Of a stretch of 32,000 nucleotides of DNA, positions 5,595 through 20,534 are shown piece by piece. The position numbers were made by a program, and so were the translations under genes. Position 1 is the stretch's first letter; each line of letters starts with the position of its first letter. Below the pieces are notes generated by a model. That model searched no databases and was not told the DNA's origin. It saw nothing but the letters and a program-made list of their open reading frames with translations. This DNA is from Nitrosopumilus sp. (GTDB lineage: Archaea; Thermoproteota; Nitrososphaeria; Nitrososphaerales; Nitrosopumilaceae). The stretch is taken from assembly GCA_029864235.1 (NCBI GenBank), contig JAOTTW010000003.1, positions 3,554 to 35,553 of the forward strand, written 5' to 3'.

Positions 5595-6800
5595 ATGTCA
5601 GATTCAAAATCTATTTCTTGGATTATTTTCTTGTTTTCTGTAACAATTGTATCGATTAGTTTTATTTCAGTTGTTTTTCCTGCACTAATTTTAGTTTCAA
5701 ACACAATAATTGTACCAGGAATTGAATCAGTTACTCCAGATCCCTACGAACCAGGAGTCTGGTCAGCAGGATTAATTATATCCAATATTATCATTTTTGG
5801 TTTAACATTTTTGTATTTTAAGAACAAACTTCCAAGATCAATATTGGATTTTTTTAAGAAATTATTTAAATTTGAGGTTTCGAAAAAAATAGCTTTTATT
5901 TGTATTACAATATTACTAATGATATACATTTCTGCAAGCATATCAGAATTATCAACTGAAGAAAAATTTGAAGACTATAACAATGTCAAAAATAGAGTAG
6001 AAGGATGGTCAGTAGATCAGGCTTTAGGATCATTTGAACCTCATGTAAGATATTTTCTAATTTCAACTTCGATGATGTTATTTGGAAATTTCAAAGTAAT
6101 TCCACTTCTAGCAAGCATTGTATTACTAATTATGATTTATTTTACTACAAAAACTATTGCTCAGAAAAGGTTTGCAGGAATTGTTTCGATGGTTATTGTA
6201 TTACAAAGTAATTTATTTCTGACATATGATACATCTGTTGCTTACACAAATTTTTGGATATTATTTTATCTTTTATCGTTATTTTTTGTTTTCAAGTTTT
6301 GGCCCTTATCACCTGTATCTTATCTTCTTTCAATTTCAGCAAAAGCACTTACAGTAACCTTTTTACCAATGTCAATATTTTTTATTCTAAGAAGTCAAAT
6401 TTCAAAAAAACAAAAAATACTTGCTGCAGGAATAACTGCTGCAATAATAATTGTGGGCGGAGTGGCAACGATGGGGAGCAATTTATCACCTACTACAGAA
6501 ACAGAAGAAGAGTTTAGTGTAAAAGAGTTTTGGATGGGTTTTACATCTTTTTCATATCAGCTAAGATTTGATGGGCTTGTAATTTTATTTATGATTCCAC
6601 TAATTGTAGGACTATTTTTATTGTCAAAAAGTGGAGTAAAAAATGCAGAATCAATTATGGTGTTAATTGCAGGAATGTTGTTGATTGCACCAATATTGAC
6701 AGGATTTACCAATCAAACAAATCAGCCATATAGATTTGTACCACTGATAGTATTTTTTGCAATGGGTGTTGGAGTATTGTTATCTAAGAGACAGGCCTGA
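5595..6800 (+). CDS. Polytopic integral membrane protein, possible GT-C-fold glycosyltransferase or glycan polymerase
   Basis: The ORF track gives 5574..6800 from a TTG. I prefer the in-frame ATG at 5595 (MSDSKSISW...). There are about 10-11 hydrophobic helices and an acidic first loop (TPDPYEPG). It lies next to GT4 in the glycan cluster. I recognise no catalytic motif with certainty. Confidence 0.55.
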   Translation: MSDSKSISWIIFLFSVTIVSISFISVVFPALILVSNTIIVPGIESVTPDPYEPGVWSAGLIISNIIIFGLTFLYFKNKLPRSILDFFKKLFKFEVSKKIAFICITILLMIYISASISELSTEEKFEDYNNVKNRVEGWSVDQALGSFEPHVRYFLISTSMMLFGNFKVIPLLASIVLLIMIYFTTKTIAQKRFAGIVSMVIVLQSNLFLTYDTSVAYTNFWILFYLLSLFFVFKFWPLSPVSYLLSISAKALTVTFLPMSIFFILRSQISKKQKILAAGITAAIIIVGGVATMGSNLSPTTETEEEFSVKEFWMGFTSFSYQLRFDGLVILFMIPLIVGLFLLSKSGVKNAESIMVLIAGMLLIAPILTGFTNQTNQPYRFVPLIVFFAMGVGVLLSKRQA

Positions 6801-7230
6801 TAAAGGTCCATATTGACTCCAAAGTATCACCTGAAATTGTAGTGTAACCATCATGAGCAAATCTTGCAAGAAGAATAGGCTTTCCATTGATATTATCGTG
6901 TAGATTAGTGCTTGCAACTAGTCCCTCAGAATCAAATGATTGAGTTTGTACCCTTCTTATTACCTGATATTGTTTTTCATCAATTGTTATTATGGGATCA
7001 TTTCCTCTAGATGCTTCAAAATCCAAAAATGAATCAAGTGCTGTGAGATTAAGATTGGTAAATTTAGATGATTCAAGATATGTTACTAGTTGACCATCAG
7101 AATTTCTCAAGCTAGTCTGCACAAAGATAAAGATATTATCTTTAATTTCAGTTTCAAAGGAACCAAAAGAACTACCCATTAGTGAGAAGATAGTAAGAAA
7201 AAAGATTCCAATAATTACAAATTTGTACAC
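6784..7230 (-). CDS. Hypothetical secreted or membrane-anchored protein
   Basis: 148 aa. It has an N-terminal hydrophobic signal/anchor (MYKFVIIGIFFLTIFSLMGSSFG) and no recognisable family. Confidence 0.55.
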   Translation of the reverse strand: MYKFVIIGIFFLTIFSLMGSSFGSFETEIKDNIFIFVQTSLRNSDGQLVTYLESSKFTNLNLTALDSFLDFEASRGNDPIITIDEKQYQVIRRVQTQSFDSEGLVASTNLHDNINGKPILLARFAHDGYTTISGDTLESIWTFIRPVS

Positions 7231-7256: not shown

Positions 7257-8597
7257 TTAATTTGCTGTTTTTATTGTCTCTTTTCCAAGCAGATGATTAT
7301 ACAAAGAGATAGCCTCTTCCTCATCTTTTGGTCCAACAATTACTGCAGAGCCTTTCTTCATGAAGGTAACTGACATTTCATTTGTTCTAAGAGATAGTCC
7401 CAACTCGCCTTGGTTTTCAACTAGAAATCCCTGTTGTTTTGCAGTGTTTGTAACACTGTTAACATCAAGATCAAAAGTACTAGTTGGAGTAATAGAGAAG
7501 GTCCTCTTTCCTCTGTTTCTACCACAGAGTTCTTCAAGAATTAATTCTTCTTTTAAAACTTCTTCGGCCTTACCTGTACCACACACAGGACATTCTTCTG
7601 CTCTAAATGTACGAGTGTTTGTAAAGTCTAGATTCTCAATGTCTATGTGTAAAATTTTATCTGACAAGCTTGGTTTTTTGCCTAAAATTACTTTAACTGC
7701 TTCTGCCACTTCAATTCCTCCAACTATAGATAAGATGGAAGGATGCACTCCCTCGATACTACAGGTAGGCATCAAGTCCTCATCTAGAGCTGGAAACATA
7801 CAATGATAGCATGCACTAGTTCTTGGGAGTATTGTAAATATCTGCCCAGAAACTCCTACTGCCGCACCTGTAACAAACGGTATTCCAAATTTTACACATG
7901 CCTTGTTTAGGGCATATCTTGCATTAACACTATCAAGTGCATCTATTACAATATCGCATCCTTCAACAACTTCAAGCGCAGTATAATCATTTACAGATAC
8001 TGCTAATGCCTCTATCTTACAGTCAGGATTTAATTTCTTTAATTTCTTTGCTGCAACTTCGACTTTTACTTGCCCAATATCATCCTCATCAAACATTGTT
8101 TGTCTATGCAAGTTTGATAATTCGATTACATCTCTGTCAACAATTCTTAAAGTACCAACACCCATTGCAGCTAGTCTTGTAGTAATTGGGTTTCCAAGAC
8201 CTCCAGTTCCAACAACACATATTTTAGCATTTTTTAATTTTAGTTGTCCTTGATAACCAATTTCTTCAAGCATTATTTGTCTTGAGTATCTGTCAAGTTC
8301 TTTTGCAGATAATTCCTGTGAACCTCCAGCAACTGCAGGTAGAATGTAGACTTCATCTCCGTTTTTAAGAGGAGTTTCCATACCACCTGAAAACTTTGCA
8401 TTTTTTCCATTAACGTAAATGTTAATTAAAGAACGTGGAGTTCCATCAGTCTCCAAGACTCTTCTCTTAAAGTCATCACCCATAGATTCAGATATTTTTG
8501 TAAAGGCATCTGTAAGTGAATCAGCTAAAATCTCTGTTTTCTTTTCTCCTCCACCTTGATTTAATACAGATGGAATGGTAAATGTGATTTTTGCCAT
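7257..8597 (-). CDS. Fusion of a MoaD/ThiS-like ubiquitin-fold sulfur-carrier domain with a ThiF/MoeB/UbaA-type E1 adenylyltransferase, plus an uncharacterised ~95-aa C-terminal domain
   Basis: 446 aa. Residues 1-92 match the MoaD/ThiS pattern (NIYVNGK...GGMETPLKNGDEVYILPAVAGG), with the diglycine at residues 91-92. The E1 domain begins directly afterwards (LSAKELDRYSRQIML, GTGGLG, DRDVIELSNLHRQ). It has Zn motifs CYHC and CPVCG and a candidate active-site Cys in PTCSIEG. The start abuts the stop of 8598..9836. Confidence 0.85.
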   Translation of the reverse strand: MAKITFTIPSVLNQGGGEKKTEILADSLTDAFTKISESMGDDFKRRVLETDGTPRSLINIYVNGKNAKFSGGMETPLKNGDEVYILPAVAGGSQELSAKELDRYSRQIMLEEIGYQGQLKLKNAKICVVGTGGLGNPITTRLAAMGVGTLRIVDRDVIELSNLHRQTMFDEDDIGQVKVEVAAKKLKKLNPDCKIEALAVSVNDYTALEVVEGCDIVIDALDSVNARYALNKACVKFGIPFVTGAAVGVSGQIFTILPRTSACYHCMFPALDEDLMPTCSIEGVHPSILSIVGGIEVAEAVKVILGKKPSLSDKILHIDIENLDFTNTRTFRAEECPVCGTGKAEEVLKEELILEELCGRNRGKRTFSITPTSTFDLDVNSVTNTAKQQGFLVENQGELGLSLRTNEMSVTFMKKGSAVIVGPKDEEEAISLYNHLLGKETIKTAN

Positions 8598-9836
8598 TTA
8601 GTTTACTACCGCTGATATTTCTCCCACATCTGCTTTCATTACTTTTGGTTTTTGTAAAACTTGCATGATTGCCTCAGTTGCCTTGAGGCCATTTCCAGTA
8701 ACATAGCATACAACTTTATCATTTGAATCAATCTTGCCTTGTTCAACCATTTTTTGAAGAACAGATACAGAAACACCACCTGCAGGTTCTGTAAATATCC
8801 CTTCAGTCTTTGCAAGTAGTAAGATTGCATCAAGTATTTCCTTATTGTTTGATTCTTCAGCAGACCCGTTGTATTGTTGTAATCTTTTCAGAACATATCT
8901 ACCATCACCAGGATCACCAATAGCTAAGCTTTTTGCAATCGTATCAGGATTTTCAACTGGAATTACTTCACTACTATTTTTCTTAAATGCATCAACAATT
9001 GGAGCACAGCCATGCGGTTGTGCGGCAATCATGTGCATATTTGAAACATCATTAAGTAATGAGATTTGTTGTAACTCTTCAAAACCTTTGCATATTGCAT
9101 TTAGCATTGCACCACTACCAACTGGAACTATTAATTGATCAGGAACTTGCCAATCAAGTTGTTCTGCTACTTCATAAGCAAGAGTCTTTGAGCCTTCAAC
9201 ATAGTAAGAACGCATATTGATATTTACAATGCCAATGCCTTTACTGTCACCAATTTGTGCAGCTATTCTATTTGCATCATCATATGTTCCATCAACTGCG
9301 ATATAGTTTGCACCATATGACAATGCTTGTGTAATTTTTGCCATTTCAATATCACTCGGAGCAAAGATGTGACATGGAAATCCACCTTTTGCTGCATGAG
9401 CTGCAGTAGCTGATGCTAAATTTCCTGTGGATGCACAGCCAACTGCCGACAATCCAAATTCTTTTGCCTTAGATACTGCAATTCCTGCTGGTCTGTCTTT
9501 AAATGAAAATGTAGGATTTACTGAATCGTTTTTGATATAGAGATTTTTCAATCCCAGTTTTTTTCCGAGATTTTCTGCTTTTGTAAGAGGAGTCATTCCA
9601 GCATCAATGCTTACAATGTTTGTTTTTTGTTCTATTGGAAGTAACTCAAAATATCTCCAATACGTTTTTTCACGAGTTACAAAAGTATTCTTTGAAACAG
9701 AAGGAAAATCATACTTTACATCTAAGGGGCCAAAACAATCATCACAAATATACTTGAAAGTAGATTTGTAATCCTTTTTACATTCTCTACATTGTAATGA
9801 TATTCTAGCCAAGATATATTCCTCCTTTGTTAGCAT
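8598..9836 (-). CDS. thrC: Threonine synthase family PLP enzyme with N-terminal zinc ribbon (ThrC or a ThrC-like sulfur-incorporating paralogue)
   Basis: 412 aa. It has an N-terminal Cys4 ribbon (CRECKK...CDDCFG), a PLP-lysine motif FSFKDRPA, and a fold-type II PLP enzyme layout (GNLASATAAHAA, GSGAM). Confidence 0.7.
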   Translation of the reverse strand: MLTKEEYILARISLQCRECKKDYKSTFKYICDDCFGPLDVKYDFPSVSKNTFVTREKTYWRYFELLPIEQKTNIVSIDAGMTPLTKAENLGKKLGLKNLYIKNDSVNPTFSFKDRPAGIAVSKAKEFGLSAVGCASTGNLASATAAHAAKGGFPCHIFAPSDIEMAKITQALSYGANYIAVDGTYDDANRIAAQIGDSKGIGIVNINMRSYYVEGSKTLAYEVAEQLDWQVPDQLIVPVGSGAMLNAICKGFEELQQISLLNDVSNMHMIAAQPHGCAPIVDAFKKNSSEVIPVENPDTIAKSLAIGDPGDGRYVLKRLQQYNGSAEESNNKEILDAILLLAKTEGIFTEPAGGVSVSVLQKMVEQGKIDSNDKVVCYVTGNGLKATEAIMQVLQKPKVMKADVGEISAVVN

Positions 9837-10028: not shown

Positions 10029-10604
10029 GTGAATAGGAACAAAATTTCCATTCCAATAGGAATTGGAATTGTTGTAATAATAATTGCAGTAATCTTTGGC
10101 ACATATGAAAAATCAGAGAACATAGAAGTTGAGGATGTCTTTGATAAGGAATTAAGACCAGAAGAAGTAAATCCAGAAATTCAGAAAAAATTAGATGAGA
10201 TTGAAGAGATTAATTTAGAAAATGATTATTCGCCAAAACCAAGAGAGTGGATCACATCAGGACCATTCCAGATTGATCGAAGCAAATATGCTTTAGGTGA
10301 AAAAGTTTTTCTCAGAATTGGAGGATTAGGTTTTGATGAAAAGGGTCAGGTAGCCTTTATGAGACCGTTAAATGATACTCATTACTCTGTATATCTAACA
10401 ATACCTTTTGATGGCGCAAAGAAGGATGCATTCAATTACTATATTGACCCCCAGCTTTCAAAAGCTAGAGGACTGTGTTCGGTAGATGATGTATTAGGAA
10501 AATGGGCAGTTGTTTTCAGAGGAACTGATTATTCAAATCTATACTTTGAGATCATAGATGAGTTTGTTCCAGGAACTGAATCTAGTTTCGAGCCTGTTTG
10601 CTAG
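10029..10604 (+). CDS. Hypothetical membrane-anchored extracellular protein
   Basis: 191 aa with a GTG start. It has an N-terminal TM anchor (ISIPIGIGIVVIIIAVIFG), an acidic linker, then a beta-rich domain. I recognise no family. Confidence 0.55.
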   Translation: MNRNKISIPIGIGIVVIIIAVIFGTYEKSENIEVEDVFDKELRPEEVNPEIQKKLDEIEEINLENDYSPKPREWITSGPFQIDRSKYALGEKVFLRIGGLGFDEKGQVAFMRPLNDTHYSVYLTIPFDGAKKDAFNYYIDPQLSKARGLCSVDDVLGKWAVVFRGTDYSNLYFEIIDEFVPGTESSFEPVC

Positions 10605-13683: not shown

Positions 13684-14658
13684 TTATTCTAAATTTAATA
13701 CCTTCGGAAGTAAATTAATTGAATCTAGAACCAATTTGACACCATTTTGCTCAAATAGTTCTAATTTTTTCTGAGGATCCTTGCTAGTTCCTATTATACC
13801 ACAAAATATTATATTATAATTTTTCTCAGTAGCCTTTTTTGACATAATAAAATCTTCCATGGAATCTCCTACATAAATAACATTATTGCAATTCATTCCA
13901 TCAATAGAACAAAGTAATGACTTTGGATTTGGTTTTGCCAAATCTCTTGATTCATCTTCTAAAAATGCTGAATTTTTTAAATCAAATTCATACAGTAAAT
14001 TTTTTAGTGAGTATTTTACTGATTCTTTTCCTCGTCCAGTAACCATAGAGATTTTAGTTGAAAATTTCTTTTTTAATATATTTAATAATTGACTAGTAAG
14101 AATTACCATATCATTTTCAATTAGACCAGATTCTGAAAACTGAGAAGAATAATTGAATAATTTTTTGTAAAGTTCTGGTCCATAAAAGATTTGATCAAAA
14201 ATTTTGTATAATGTATTTTCATGATGAGTTCCAGGATACGAAAGTTTTTTTTTAATTTCTTTAATATCAACATAACTTTCTAAAAATTTTTCAACAGATA
14301 AAATTCCAGAAGAATTTGAATTTTTACTAACTTCTAAAAGAAAATCGTATTGATCTTTTTTTAATTTTTTTGCAGCCACAATTGAAATAATGGTAGCATA
14401 TGTGAGATCGACTTCGTCATTGAATCCACCAGTAGATTTGAAGCAATCTATAATTTTTGAATCAATTGTTATTCCATCAGTAATGTTTGCAAAATGTTCT
14501 AAAACGTATTGAGTTGTTTTATTTATTGTTAGGTCATATGAATTTGTAATATCAATTAATACCCCGTCACAATCAAAAATTATTCCATCACTTTTAGTTA
14601 GAGTCTCTAGAATAGAATCATCAATATGGATTCCATCATATTTTTTTGTTATAGTCAT
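13684..14658 (-). CDS. HAD-superfamily phosphatase with a large cap insert, embedded in the his operon (candidate histidinol-phosphate phosphatase)
   Basis: 324 aa. HAD motif I is [12 protein letters not shown], motif II MVTGRG, motif [11 protein letters not shown] and motif [11 protein letters not shown]. About 170 aa lie between motifs I and II. Its ATG overlaps the hisC stop (ATGA at 14655-14658). Confidence 0.7.
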
Positions 14659-20444: not shown

Positions 20445-20534
20445 AGCGGGGTGGGGAAGTCAGACTATTTAGGGCTAGGTCATCCCGGCGGGCTCATAAC
20501 CCGCAAATCAGTAGTTCAAATCTACTCCCCGCTA
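20445..20534 (+). tRNA. Initiator tRNA-Met (anticodon CAU at 20495-20497) with a ~15-nt insertion (putative non-canonical intron) in the D-loop
   Basis: I folded this by hand. The acceptor is AGCGGGG/CCCCGCT (A1:U72) with discriminator A. The D stem is GGGA/TCCC. The anticodon stem is GCGGG/CCCGC (three G:C pairs next to the loop) with loop CTCATAA. The T arm is AGTAG-TTCAAAT-CTACT. No CCA is encoded. The total is 90 nt against about 75 expected. A T-rich tract follows (20535-20546). It is the only GC-rich island in this intergenic region. Confidence 0.85.

Follow-up and report, generated by a model that had tools for sequence, protein, structure and literature searches.

In Mycobacterium tuberculosis, the CysO/CysM/MoeZ/Mec pathway uses a protein thiocarboxylate to give sulfur to a fold-type-II pyridoxal-phosphate (PLP) enzyme whose substrate is O-phosphoserine (CysM–CysO complex, PDB 3DWG). 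In the HcyS/HcyF/HcyD/MetY pathway of Wolinella succinogenes, a thiocarboxylated ubiquitin-like (Ubl) protein supplies the sulfur of homocysteine, and the JAB-type protein HcyD removes an extension past its Gly-Gly. In Streptomyces albulus, according to papers that cite Hasebe et al. 2024 (Appl Environ Microbiol 90:e01247-24), MetM, a homologue of threonine synthase (ThrC), converts O-phosphohomoserine and MetO-thiocarboxylate into homocysteine; the citing papers call MetM 'often misannotated' as threonine synthase. Iyer et al. 2006 proposed for Ubl domains fused to ThiF a role unlike that of free ThiS, and noted one case beside sulfhydrylase genes. Makarova & Koonin 2010 (PMC2948915) listed 'Ubl-E1-TBP in Thaumarchaeota' as a fusion shared with bacteria and recorded in their supplement, without comment, an arCOG01434 (ThrC) neighbour in Nitrosopumilus maritimus. 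Here, we analysed a fusion of this kind, and the ThrC-family gene that adjoins it, in a stretch of 32,000 nucleotides from Nitrosopumilus sp. (contig JAOTTW010000003.1, positions 3,554 to 35,553; hereafter the window).

We propose that the two genes form a MetM/MetO-type module in which sulfur is inserted into an amino acid via a protein thiocarboxylate, and that the PLP enzyme makes homocysteine with the released carrier, with or without also making threonine; we put the probability of this reading at about 0.58. It is supported by the clade and the signature columns of the PLP enzyme, the CysO-type carrier, the coupling of the two genes, other fusions, split variants, the Gly-Gly junction and the genome background. 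As judged from these sequences, ammonia-oxidising archaea probably put sulfur into methionine via a protein-thiocarboxylate route. The fusion has been known since 2010 and the MetM/MetO pathway since 2024; we connect the two here, in archaea. Our literature search returned no paper that links the Ubl-E1-TBP fusion to MetM or assigns it such a role in archaea, and none that describes homocysteine synthesis in Nitrosopumilus-type archaea. The GapMind update of 2026 added the MetM steps and has N. maritimus among its test genomes, with no discussion of a gene of the type found in the window.

The features of the gene pair are as follows, with the evidence in brackets (NJ, neighbour-joining; AF2, AlphaFold2):

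8598..9836, minus strand: PLP enzyme, ThrC-family, fold type II, MetM-like clade (PALP, TIGR00260, PRK08197, NJ clade)
9735..9791, minus strand: N-terminal Cys4 zinc ribbon of the PLP enzyme, CRECx11CxxC, residues 16-34, then FGPLDVKYDF (sequence)
9492..9506, minus strand: PLP-lysine motif SFKDR (Lys113) within NPTFSFKDRP (alignment; canonical ThrC has NPTGSFKDRG)
7257..8597, minus strand: gene for the fusion of Ubl, E1 and C-terminal domain, 446 aa (Pfam/NCBIfam, AF2)
8322..8597, minus strand: ubiquitin-fold sulfur-carrier domain (MoaD/ThiS, CysO/MetO-like), residues 1-92, ending LPAVAGG (Pfam ThiS, PDB matches)
8322-8327, minus strand: Gly-Gly codons of the carrier domain
8310..8321, minus strand: linker S93-Q-E-L96 from Gly-Gly to the first E1 helix, with the presumed cleavage site after Gly92
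7563..8309, minus strand: ThiF/MoeB/UbaA-type E1 adenylyltransferase domain, residues ~97-345 (Pfam ThiF, Foldseek)
7278..7550, minus strand: C-terminal alpha/beta domain, residues ~350-440, called 'TBP-like' in the literature (PRK12475, AF2)

The window has about 31% G+C, and its nearest relatives are all Nitrosopumilus/Nitrosarchaeum genomes. The reading frame at 8598..9836 (-) encodes 412 aa and ends in a TAA stop (reverse complement of 8598-8600), and the frame at 7257..8597 (-) encodes 446 aa from an ATG (reverse complement of 8595-8597), leaving a spacer of 0 nt. An initial annotation, made from the sequence alone, had described this stop as abutting the fusion ATG, and its coordinates are exact. 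An alternative start of the PLP enzyme, a TTG at 9810-9812 (-) with AAGGAGG ahead of it, would give 404 aa, the annotated length in N. maritimus; many orthologues align from residue 8 only, which touches this question.

The PLP enzyme matches Pfam PALP with an E-value of 1.5e-72. Its best solved relatives are true threonine synthases, aligned from residue 60 onward only. A tblastn search of a plasmid collection returned a homologue on a replicon of Nonomuraea gerenzanensis with 45% identity over 405 aa, a span that takes in the zinc ribbon. In a homologue search started from this Nonomuraea protein, Streptosporangiales filled the list of matches, and none of those listed came from Streptomyces. 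Directly upstream of this homologue lies a SAM riboswitch (RF00162, 68.7 bits) and directly downstream a free 91-aa Ubl that ends in IIPAVAGG-stop; the carrier domain of the window is 31% identical to this MetO-like protein, and their C-termini are alike. We took the Nonomuraea gene to be of metM type because its riboswitch and free-carrier layout matches that reported for metM-metO of S. albulus. In an NJ tree (14 sequences, 321 core columns, 200 bootstraps), four thaumarchaeal-type proteins and the Nonomuraea protein form one clade (200/200) and the four solved ThrCs a separate one (200/200). Core identity of the enzyme is 49% with the Nonomuraea protein and 36-40% with ThrC; between bacterial ThrCs and that of Thermus thermophilus, identity is 57-61%.

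The same division appears at the level of single residues. Forty-four columns that do not vary among the four solved ThrCs are changed in every member of the MetM-like clade, and they cluster in active-site loops. The signature reads as follows (ThrC first, clade second):

NPTGSFKDRG to NPT[FYH]SFKDR[PV]
STGNT to STGNL
NSVNPxR to N[IV]N[LM]RxYY
GNAGN to [GA]SG[AS]x
TIATAIxIGNPxSW to TIAKSLAIG[DN]PxDG
EPASAA to E[PT]AGGV

Five active-site motifs of ThrC (NPTGSFKDRG, STGNT, NSVNPxR, GNAGN and IGNPxSW) are all altered as in the metM-type homologue. At positions T88, S155, R160 and N188 of the T. thermophilus ThrC, which we take to be its phosphate ligands, the clade has L, N, Y and S. The zinc-ribbon motif CRECxxxY...CxxCFGPL(D/E) is present in all clade members and in none (0/4) of the solved ThrCs. 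We rejected this ribbon as a MetM diagnostic on its own: 'thrC' genes with N-terminal extensions and no Ubl neighbour (plasmid-borne; Chlorohelix, Haladaptatus, Aliarcobacter, Priestia) fall outside the clade and do not carry the signature. ThrC-like genes beside Ubl-E1 fusions in two distant lineages (loci L085 and L097, described below) do bear it. We conclude that the PLP enzyme, by its clade (200/200, with the Nonomuraea protein as proxy) and its 44 signature columns, is MetM-like and not a canonical threonine synthase, in line with the initial annotation, which had inferred that the pair may be a compact version of such a pathway. The gene is named 'threonine synthase' in every examined relative that carries a name.

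The module could in principle yield a different sulfur product, the thiocarboxylate being used with another acceptor such as O-phosphoserine to give cysteine, as CysM does. Related Ubl-E1 fusions do pair with CysM-like enzymes, and the ThrC family includes cysteate synthase. Against this stand the scores of the PLP enzyme, far under the cut-offs of the CysM and cysteate synthase models (83 bits for TIGR03844), and its place in the clade of a SAM-riboswitch-controlled, methionine-linked homologue; we regard another product as extremely unlikely.

The fusion protein joins a carrier to its activating enzyme within one frame, as initially annotated. Pfam ThiS (PF02597) matches residues 54-92 above its gathering score (E 2.4e-8) and Pfam ThiF (PF00899) residues 104-337 (E 1.4e-74). 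Residues 88-92 read AVAGG; four residues past Gly92, at residue 96, the first E1 helix (LSAKELDRYSRQ) begins, with no stop between. The E1 domain carries GTGGLG (130-135), SNLHRQ (161-166), CYHC (263-266) and CPVC (336-339), together with an Arg finger, RYSRQ, and Cys279 in the cross-over loop. R106, G130/132/135, R165, K178, D222, C263, C266, C336 and C339 do not vary in E1 homologues with identities as low as 26%. Since its Arg finger, GxGxxG, catalytic Asp and four zinc cysteines are among these invariant residues, the E1 appears to be catalytically competent. An AF2 model of the fusion (34-sequence alignment) has a mean pLDDT of 86.4; the strand and helix pattern of residues 1-87 fits a beta-grasp, and the E1 core superposes on E. 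coli ThiF 1zud (TM 0.95, rmsd 1.7 Å, Foldseek) and also on MoeB 1jw9.

In a sequence search of the PDB, the carrier domain best matched an Amycolatopsis ThiS/MoaD-family protein (4n6e_B, 1e-12) and CysO of M. tuberculosis (3dwg_C, 6e-12), with much weaker matches to SAMP1 (3e-6) and MoaD (4e-4 or worse). The carrier had been likened at the outset to those that serve PLP enzymes, and this ranking bears the comparison out. The equivalog models for UbaA (219 vs 450) and SAMP1 (43-44 vs 60) remain under their cut-offs, although the sequence leaves room for a conjugation role of the SAMP/UbaA kind.

Two features go beyond the initial annotation, the Cys4 zinc ribbon of the PLP enzyme and a C-terminal extension of about 100 aa on the E1. 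This extension is of a type common to PRK12475-type MoeB, with residues 102-438 aligning to positions 3-338 of the 338 in the NCBIfam PRK12475 profile. It is modelled by AF2 as a compact domain (strand-strand-helix-4 strands-helix, pLDDT ~85), gave no PDB sequence match, and occupies the place of the rhodanese domain in MoeZ. Pfam found no rhodanese domain in the fusion protein, and the MoeZ model scored 162.5 vs a cut-off of 647. The neighbourhood of the closest unfused E1 (P0126) was uninformative.

We then considered whether the carrier leaves the fusion. LPAVAGG is invariant in 78/78 related sequences that reach the junction, and the residue that follows varies (Ser, Ala, Glu and Asp all occur). 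The junction is also an insertion hot spot, with 11 to ~20 extra acidic or Gly-rich residues in some lineages, and residues 90-93 (A-G-G-S) are the one place inside the AF2 model where pLDDT drops below 50. In Nitrososphaerales-like contigs (L088-L090; 1-1303, 8001-10756), the linker past Gly-Gly exceeds that of the window by ~20 acidic residues; some 7 kb away from the Ubl-E1/ThrC-like pair, the same contigs encode ATP sulfurylase and PAPS reductase.

Two loci carry natural split forms. In a Nitrosopumilus (L041; OZ240211.1, 7227-9420), an intact carrier frame of 93 aa has a TAG directly after GG, and the E1 region is reduced to decayed fragments (48-56% identity, with deletions) interrupted by a 408-aa transposase-like frame at 7806-9032. 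In a more G+C-rich relative (L083; OZ244651.1, 7239-7529), whose PLP enzyme is 73% identical to that of the window, the E1 is deleted and the carrier frame ends GGSDLS-stop, followed by genes for a zinc-ribbon protein, a CofC-like and a CofD-like protein; this carrier would need C-terminal trimming because of the SDLS past GG. Both loci retain an intact PLP gene and carrier, and the carriers are 74-75% identical to that of the window (70-100% for intact fusions). Read from their frames, the split variants show that the carrier functions on its own, as a protein ending in GG or nearly so, that the E1 can act in trans, and that enzyme and carrier are the pair under selection. Both loci are metagenome assemblies, with a residual chance of assembly error; random error is an unlikely source of the L041 form because an intact 93-codon frame lies beside a decayed E1.

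The initial annotation had called the buried Gly-Gly an unusual twist that demanded either release by a protease or a cis mode of action. Unusual it is not, Ubl-ThiF fusions having been described by Iyer et al. 2006 and Makarova & Koonin 2010. Of the two modes, release by a peptidase is favoured by JAB genes, JAB-bearing fusion operons and free carriers, and the cis mode is chemically implausible. We rejected cis activation of the fused Gly-Gly since adenylation needs a free carboxylate, and intein-like self-cleavage as unlikely since the residue past GG is not always a nucleophile. A further alternative is that the fused Ubl is never released and serves as a docking or regulatory domain, for example by recruiting the PLP enzyme to the E1 or filling the Ubl-binding site, with another, unannotated small protein carrying the sulfur. 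Iyer et al. 2006 argued likewise for bacterial Ubl-ThiF fusions that co-occur with free ThiS, and the linker in the window is just 4 residues long. We nevertheless consider it very unlikely: the window has no second reading frame that ends in GG, the published table for N. maritimus has no other GG-bearing Ubl, docking does not need an invariant Gly-Gly, free versions ending in GG-stop and GGSDLS-stop occur in nature, and JAB genes lie in operons with other such fusions.

The coupling of the two genes is conserved, within the family and beyond. Our orthologue set comprised 80 loci, one genome per species, all Nitrosopumilaceae-type (a few with other bin labels), from Nitrosopumilus, Nitrosarchaeum, Nitrosotenuis, Nitrosotalea and Nitrosopelagicus. 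The Ubl-E1 gene lies 0-20 nt after the PLP gene in every locus with downstream room (~76 Nitrosopumilaceae loci); the same two genes in the same layout in ~76 other genomes place the arrangement far beyond chance. In the homologue search with the fusion protein, the matches listed were all at least 86% identical; distant fusions came from a search of representatives. In L084 and L085 the two frames overlap and in L097 they are adjacent, with fusion proteins 42%, 41% and 34% identical to that of the window, respectively, and flanking genes unrelated to those of the window; a TusA gene lies near the pair in L085 and after it in L097. Nitrososphaerales-like contigs have the two genes side by side, in convergent orientation. 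The pairing, whose conservation the initial annotation had named as a check, is thus kept in the Nitrosopumilaceae (~76 loci) and, outside them, in three to four distant lineages.

Other fusions have comparable neighbours. One operon (L099/L100, a cluster that includes a metagenome-assembled genome of Gemmatimonadales) encodes Rrf2, CysM, Prok-JAB and a Ubl-E1-rhodanese protein. Another (L086, 291-6045) encodes a GHMP-family kinase (not clearly ThrB), Ubl-E1, a cysteine desulfurase, an AlaX-like editing-domain protein, a CysM-like enzyme and Prok-JAB. In L087, Ubl-E1-rhodanese is followed by CysK/M, without a JAB gene. Overall, a fold-type-II PLP gene of sulfhydrylase type stands beside the fusion in 8/9 lineages examined, and a JAB gene in the same operon in 2/9. 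The L086 operon appears to encode on its own all of a thiocarboxylate pathway to a sulfur amino acid. In L098 (221-5601), a 337-aa Ubl-E1 fusion has a NIL-ferredoxin protein on one side and a class-V aminotransferase with SufC/SufBD on the other, and no PALP gene was found on the contig. NIL-ferredoxin proteins belong to a homocysteine route of anaerobes.

The published genome background narrows the roles open to the fusion. The tables of Makarova & Koonin 2010 credit N. maritimus and C. symbiosum with one E1, Thi4-type thiamine synthesis, 3-5 rhodaneses, two JAB peptidases and one NcsA/TtuA-family PP-loop ATPase, and with neither ThiS nor genes for molybdenum cofactor (Moco) biosynthesis. Their two MoaD-family domains are the Ubl-E1 carrier and a Cgi121 fusion, the latter ending FGS. 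We rejected a Moco or thiamine role of the Ubl-E1 on the basis of these tables, because they show a Thi4-type route to thiazole and neither ThiS nor Moco genes. Of the earlier suggestion that the Ubl-E1 might serve only Moco or tRNA thiolation, the Moco part is thereby ruled out; no GG-bearing Ubl other than this carrier is on record, so that carrier and E1, as the genome's sole pair of this kind, may supply tRNA thiolation as well. A JAB peptidase elsewhere in the genome had likewise been proposed as something to look for, and the two JAB proteins of the tables mean that a releasing peptidase is available.

Observed are the domain architecture, the clade, the gene coupling and the natural free carriers; from these we infer cleavage, thiocarboxylation, substrate and product as follows. 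The 446-aa protein would be a polyprotein, cut after Gly92 by a JAMM/JAB metallopeptidase encoded elsewhere, and cleavage would free a 92-residue CysO/MetO-like carrier with a C-terminal Gly-Gly. The remaining E1 would adenylate the carrier carboxylate with ATP, and the acyl-adenylate would be converted into a thiocarboxylate with a stand-alone rhodanese, a cysteine-desulfurase persulfide or sulfide as the donor; the E1 of the window has no rhodanese domain. The ThrC-family PLP enzyme would bind O-phospho-L-homoserine and eliminate phosphate, after which the carrier thiocarboxylate, not water, would attack to give homocysteine, the precursor of methionine. The carrier would then be recycled, possibly with the help of the same JAB peptidase.

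Several observations weigh against the MetM-type reading. The PLP enzyme passes the cut-offs of NCBIfam thrC TIGR00260 (294.8 bits, cut-off 167.1) and of PRK08197 (305.7 bits, cut-off 303); Nonomuraea metM-type proteins also carry the name threonine synthase, so these equivalog models do not discriminate MetM from ThrC. The tree is small and NJ-only, and placement in the MetM clade is by proxy, the Nonomuraea homologue, defined by its riboswitch and neighbour gene, standing for MetM of S. albulus. In the window protein, Gly92 is peptide-bonded to Ser93 and so has no free C-terminal carboxylate of the kind that marks a CysO/MetO-type carrier; among the natural forms, only the GG-stop variant of L041 has one. 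No JAB, rhodanese or homoserine kinase gene lies within the window (for JAB/Mec, in agreement with the initial annotation), and the convergent genes of Nitrososphaerales mean no co-transcription there. Finally, threonine synthase (EC 4.2.3.1) is given as gained at the ancestor of ammonia oxidisers in the main text of Sheridan et al. 2020, a supplementary list of that paper, apparently for the same ancestor, has a single arCOG01434 entry, with LysC and MetF, and threonine synthase kinetics have been reported in vitro for the MetM-lineage ThrC of Microcystis aeruginosa (PMC12172450). Membership of the MetM clade therefore does not exclude threonine synthesis.

An ordinary threonine synthase next to an unrelated Ubl-E1, the latter serving tRNA 2-thiolation and/or sampylation and the adjacency being inherited synteny, would agree with the two equivalog scores. 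The E1 is the only one in N. maritimus and, with the NcsA/TtuA-family PP-loop ATPase encoded, is likely required for tRNA thiolation anyway; moreover, the his genes beside the pair are also syntenic between Nitrosopumilaceae and Nitrososphaerales. Plain synteny is possible within Nitrosopumilaceae, but the pair persists, with overlapping or abutting frames, among wholly different flanks in L084, L085 and L097, and the carrier remains with the PLP gene where the E1 is lost. The carrier is nearest the CysO type and not the SAMP2/Urm1/TtuB types, the SAMP1 and UbaA scores are under cut-off, and the 44 clade-specific changes are shared with a methionine-regulated homologue. We therefore judge this explanation unlikely.

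The points that concern threonine also fit a sub-case of the MetM-type reading. Here the sole ThrC homologue would be a branch-point enzyme, making threonine when water attacks and homocysteine when the charged carrier is docked. A tblastn search that covered the window and ~1 Mb of related loci returned no second ThrC-like gene. If the genome has no second canonical thrC, the enzyme would have to make threonine too and may also be the cell's threonine synthase. The Microcystis enzyme stands beside a metO-like gene in a host said to have lost the canonical copy, the Sheridan et al. gain with its one arCOG01434 entry points the same way, and the PLP enzyme is 80-94% conserved within the family, more than the E1. 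The replacement, throughout the clade, of the four residues taken to be phosphate ligands of ThrC speaks against it. We consider a branch-point enzyme quite possible, though we lean against it. In its full form, a single ThrC-family enzyme would stand at the O-phosphohomoserine branch point, giving threonine by default and homocysteine when the thiocarboxylated carrier docks, with the carrier released from an E1 polyprotein by a JAMM peptidase; this we advance more tentatively still.

The surroundings of the gene pair, a histidine operon upstream and glycosyltransferase/ABC genes downstream, include nothing sulfur-related. No riboswitch was found anywhere in the window (Rfam, gathering threshold). 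Riboswitches are rare in archaea, and the missing SAM riboswitch says little. Promoter and terminator scans around the pair gave counts close to the shuffled expectation, with a bacterial consensus unsuited to archaea. Two conserved proteins without family match flank the pair, one of 191 aa with a hydrophobic segment at its N-terminus (10029-10604, +) and one of 148 aa with an N-terminal hydrophobic segment, possibly secreted (6784-7230, -); both genes also occur on metagenome contigs with an identical fusion protein. Inside the his operon, between the imidazoleglycerol-phosphate dehydratase and histidinol-phosphate aminotransferase genes, lies a 324-aa HAD-family hydrolase (13684-14658, -) with a faint histidinol-phosphatase-domain match only, a candidate for the 'missing' HisN step, which is the commonest gap according to GapMind. 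An unusual 565-aa fusion of ABC-transporter ATPase and sulfotransferase (653-2350, -) adjoins an ABC-2 permease and a glycosyltransferase, and possibly has a role in sulfated-glycan export. A weak partial tRNA match (20470-20526, +; Rfam, 31.7 bits, model positions 8-63) lies just upstream of the TiaS gene; a scan of the whole window with ARAGORN returned no tRNA.

Few cells in the ocean are as abundant as Nitrosopumilus-type archaea. If the MetM-type reading is true, their 'threonine synthase' gene would really, or also, encode the sulfur-inserting step of methionine synthesis, and metabolic models that assign it to threonine only would be corrected. The MetM/MetO route, known since 2024 from Streptomyces only, would extend to archaea, and the 'Ubl-E1-TBP' fusion, unexplained since 2010, would gain a concrete role. 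The fusion would also offer a simple natural system for the release by JAMM of a ubiquitin-like protein from a linear precursor and its subsequent use as a sulfur carrier. With a branch-point enzyme, a two-gene cassette would set the split between threonine and methionine and tie it to sulfur supply, and archaea would thereby put ubiquitin-style precursor processing to metabolic use.

Compared with known systems, the locus shares with the CysO pathway of M. tuberculosis a thiocarboxylate donor to a fold-type-II PLP enzyme, and CysO is the second-best solved relative of its carrier (6e-12); the M. tuberculosis PLP enzyme, however, belongs to the CysM/CysK family and not to ThrC, and its carrier is a separate protein. 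In the HcyS pathway of Wolinella the carrier is likewise made with an extension past Gly-Gly, comparable to the GGSDLS of L083, but this extension is a single alanine and not an E1, and the PLP enzyme, MetY, is a fold-type-I O-acetylhomoserine sulfhydrylase. UbaA/SAMP of Haloferax volcanii has an E1 of the same family, yet the window protein stays under the UbaA and SAMP1 cut-offs. The survey of Makarova & Koonin 2010 (PMC2948915), which predates MetM, lists 'Ubl-E1-TBP' and leaves its ThrC neighbour undiscussed. ThrC of Microcystis aeruginosa, from the cyanobacterial 'unique ThrC lineage' (PMC12172450), is 51.6% identical to S. albulus MetM, lies beside a metO-like gene and is annotated as threonine synthase, as in the archaea; it differs in its reported threonine synthase and deaminase activities in vitro, its unfused carrier, and homocysteine formation not having been demonstrated. 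The bacterial CysM-Prok-JAB-(Ubl-E1-rhodanese) operons (L099/L100, L086) have the carrier N-terminal to the E1 in frame, a conserved Gly-Gly at the junction and a PLP sulfhydrylase-type neighbour; they differ in having their own JAB, a CysM-like PLP enzyme and, in L086, a cysteine desulfurase. The E1s of L087 and L099 end in a rhodanese domain, whereas the alignment of the L086 E1 with the window protein runs on through the C-terminal domain of the latter.

The MetM/MetO/MoeZ/Mec system of S. albulus, as described in citing papers, differs in that the archaeal carrier is fused to the N-terminus of the E1 and is not a free gene product. In addition, the archaeal E1 has a 'TBP-like' domain where MoeZ has a rhodanese, its locus is without a SAM riboswitch, the host is an archaeon, and the PLP enzyme is 45% identical to the proxy MetM, with an activity predicted from sequence. 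In both, a ThrC-homologous PLP gene adjoins a Gly-Gly carrier, an E1 charges the carrier (in the archaea, by prediction) and a JAB-family peptidase is, or would be, involved. Through the Nonomuraea proxy, the archaeal enzyme clusters with a metM-type gene and has the same zinc ribbon and active-site signature.

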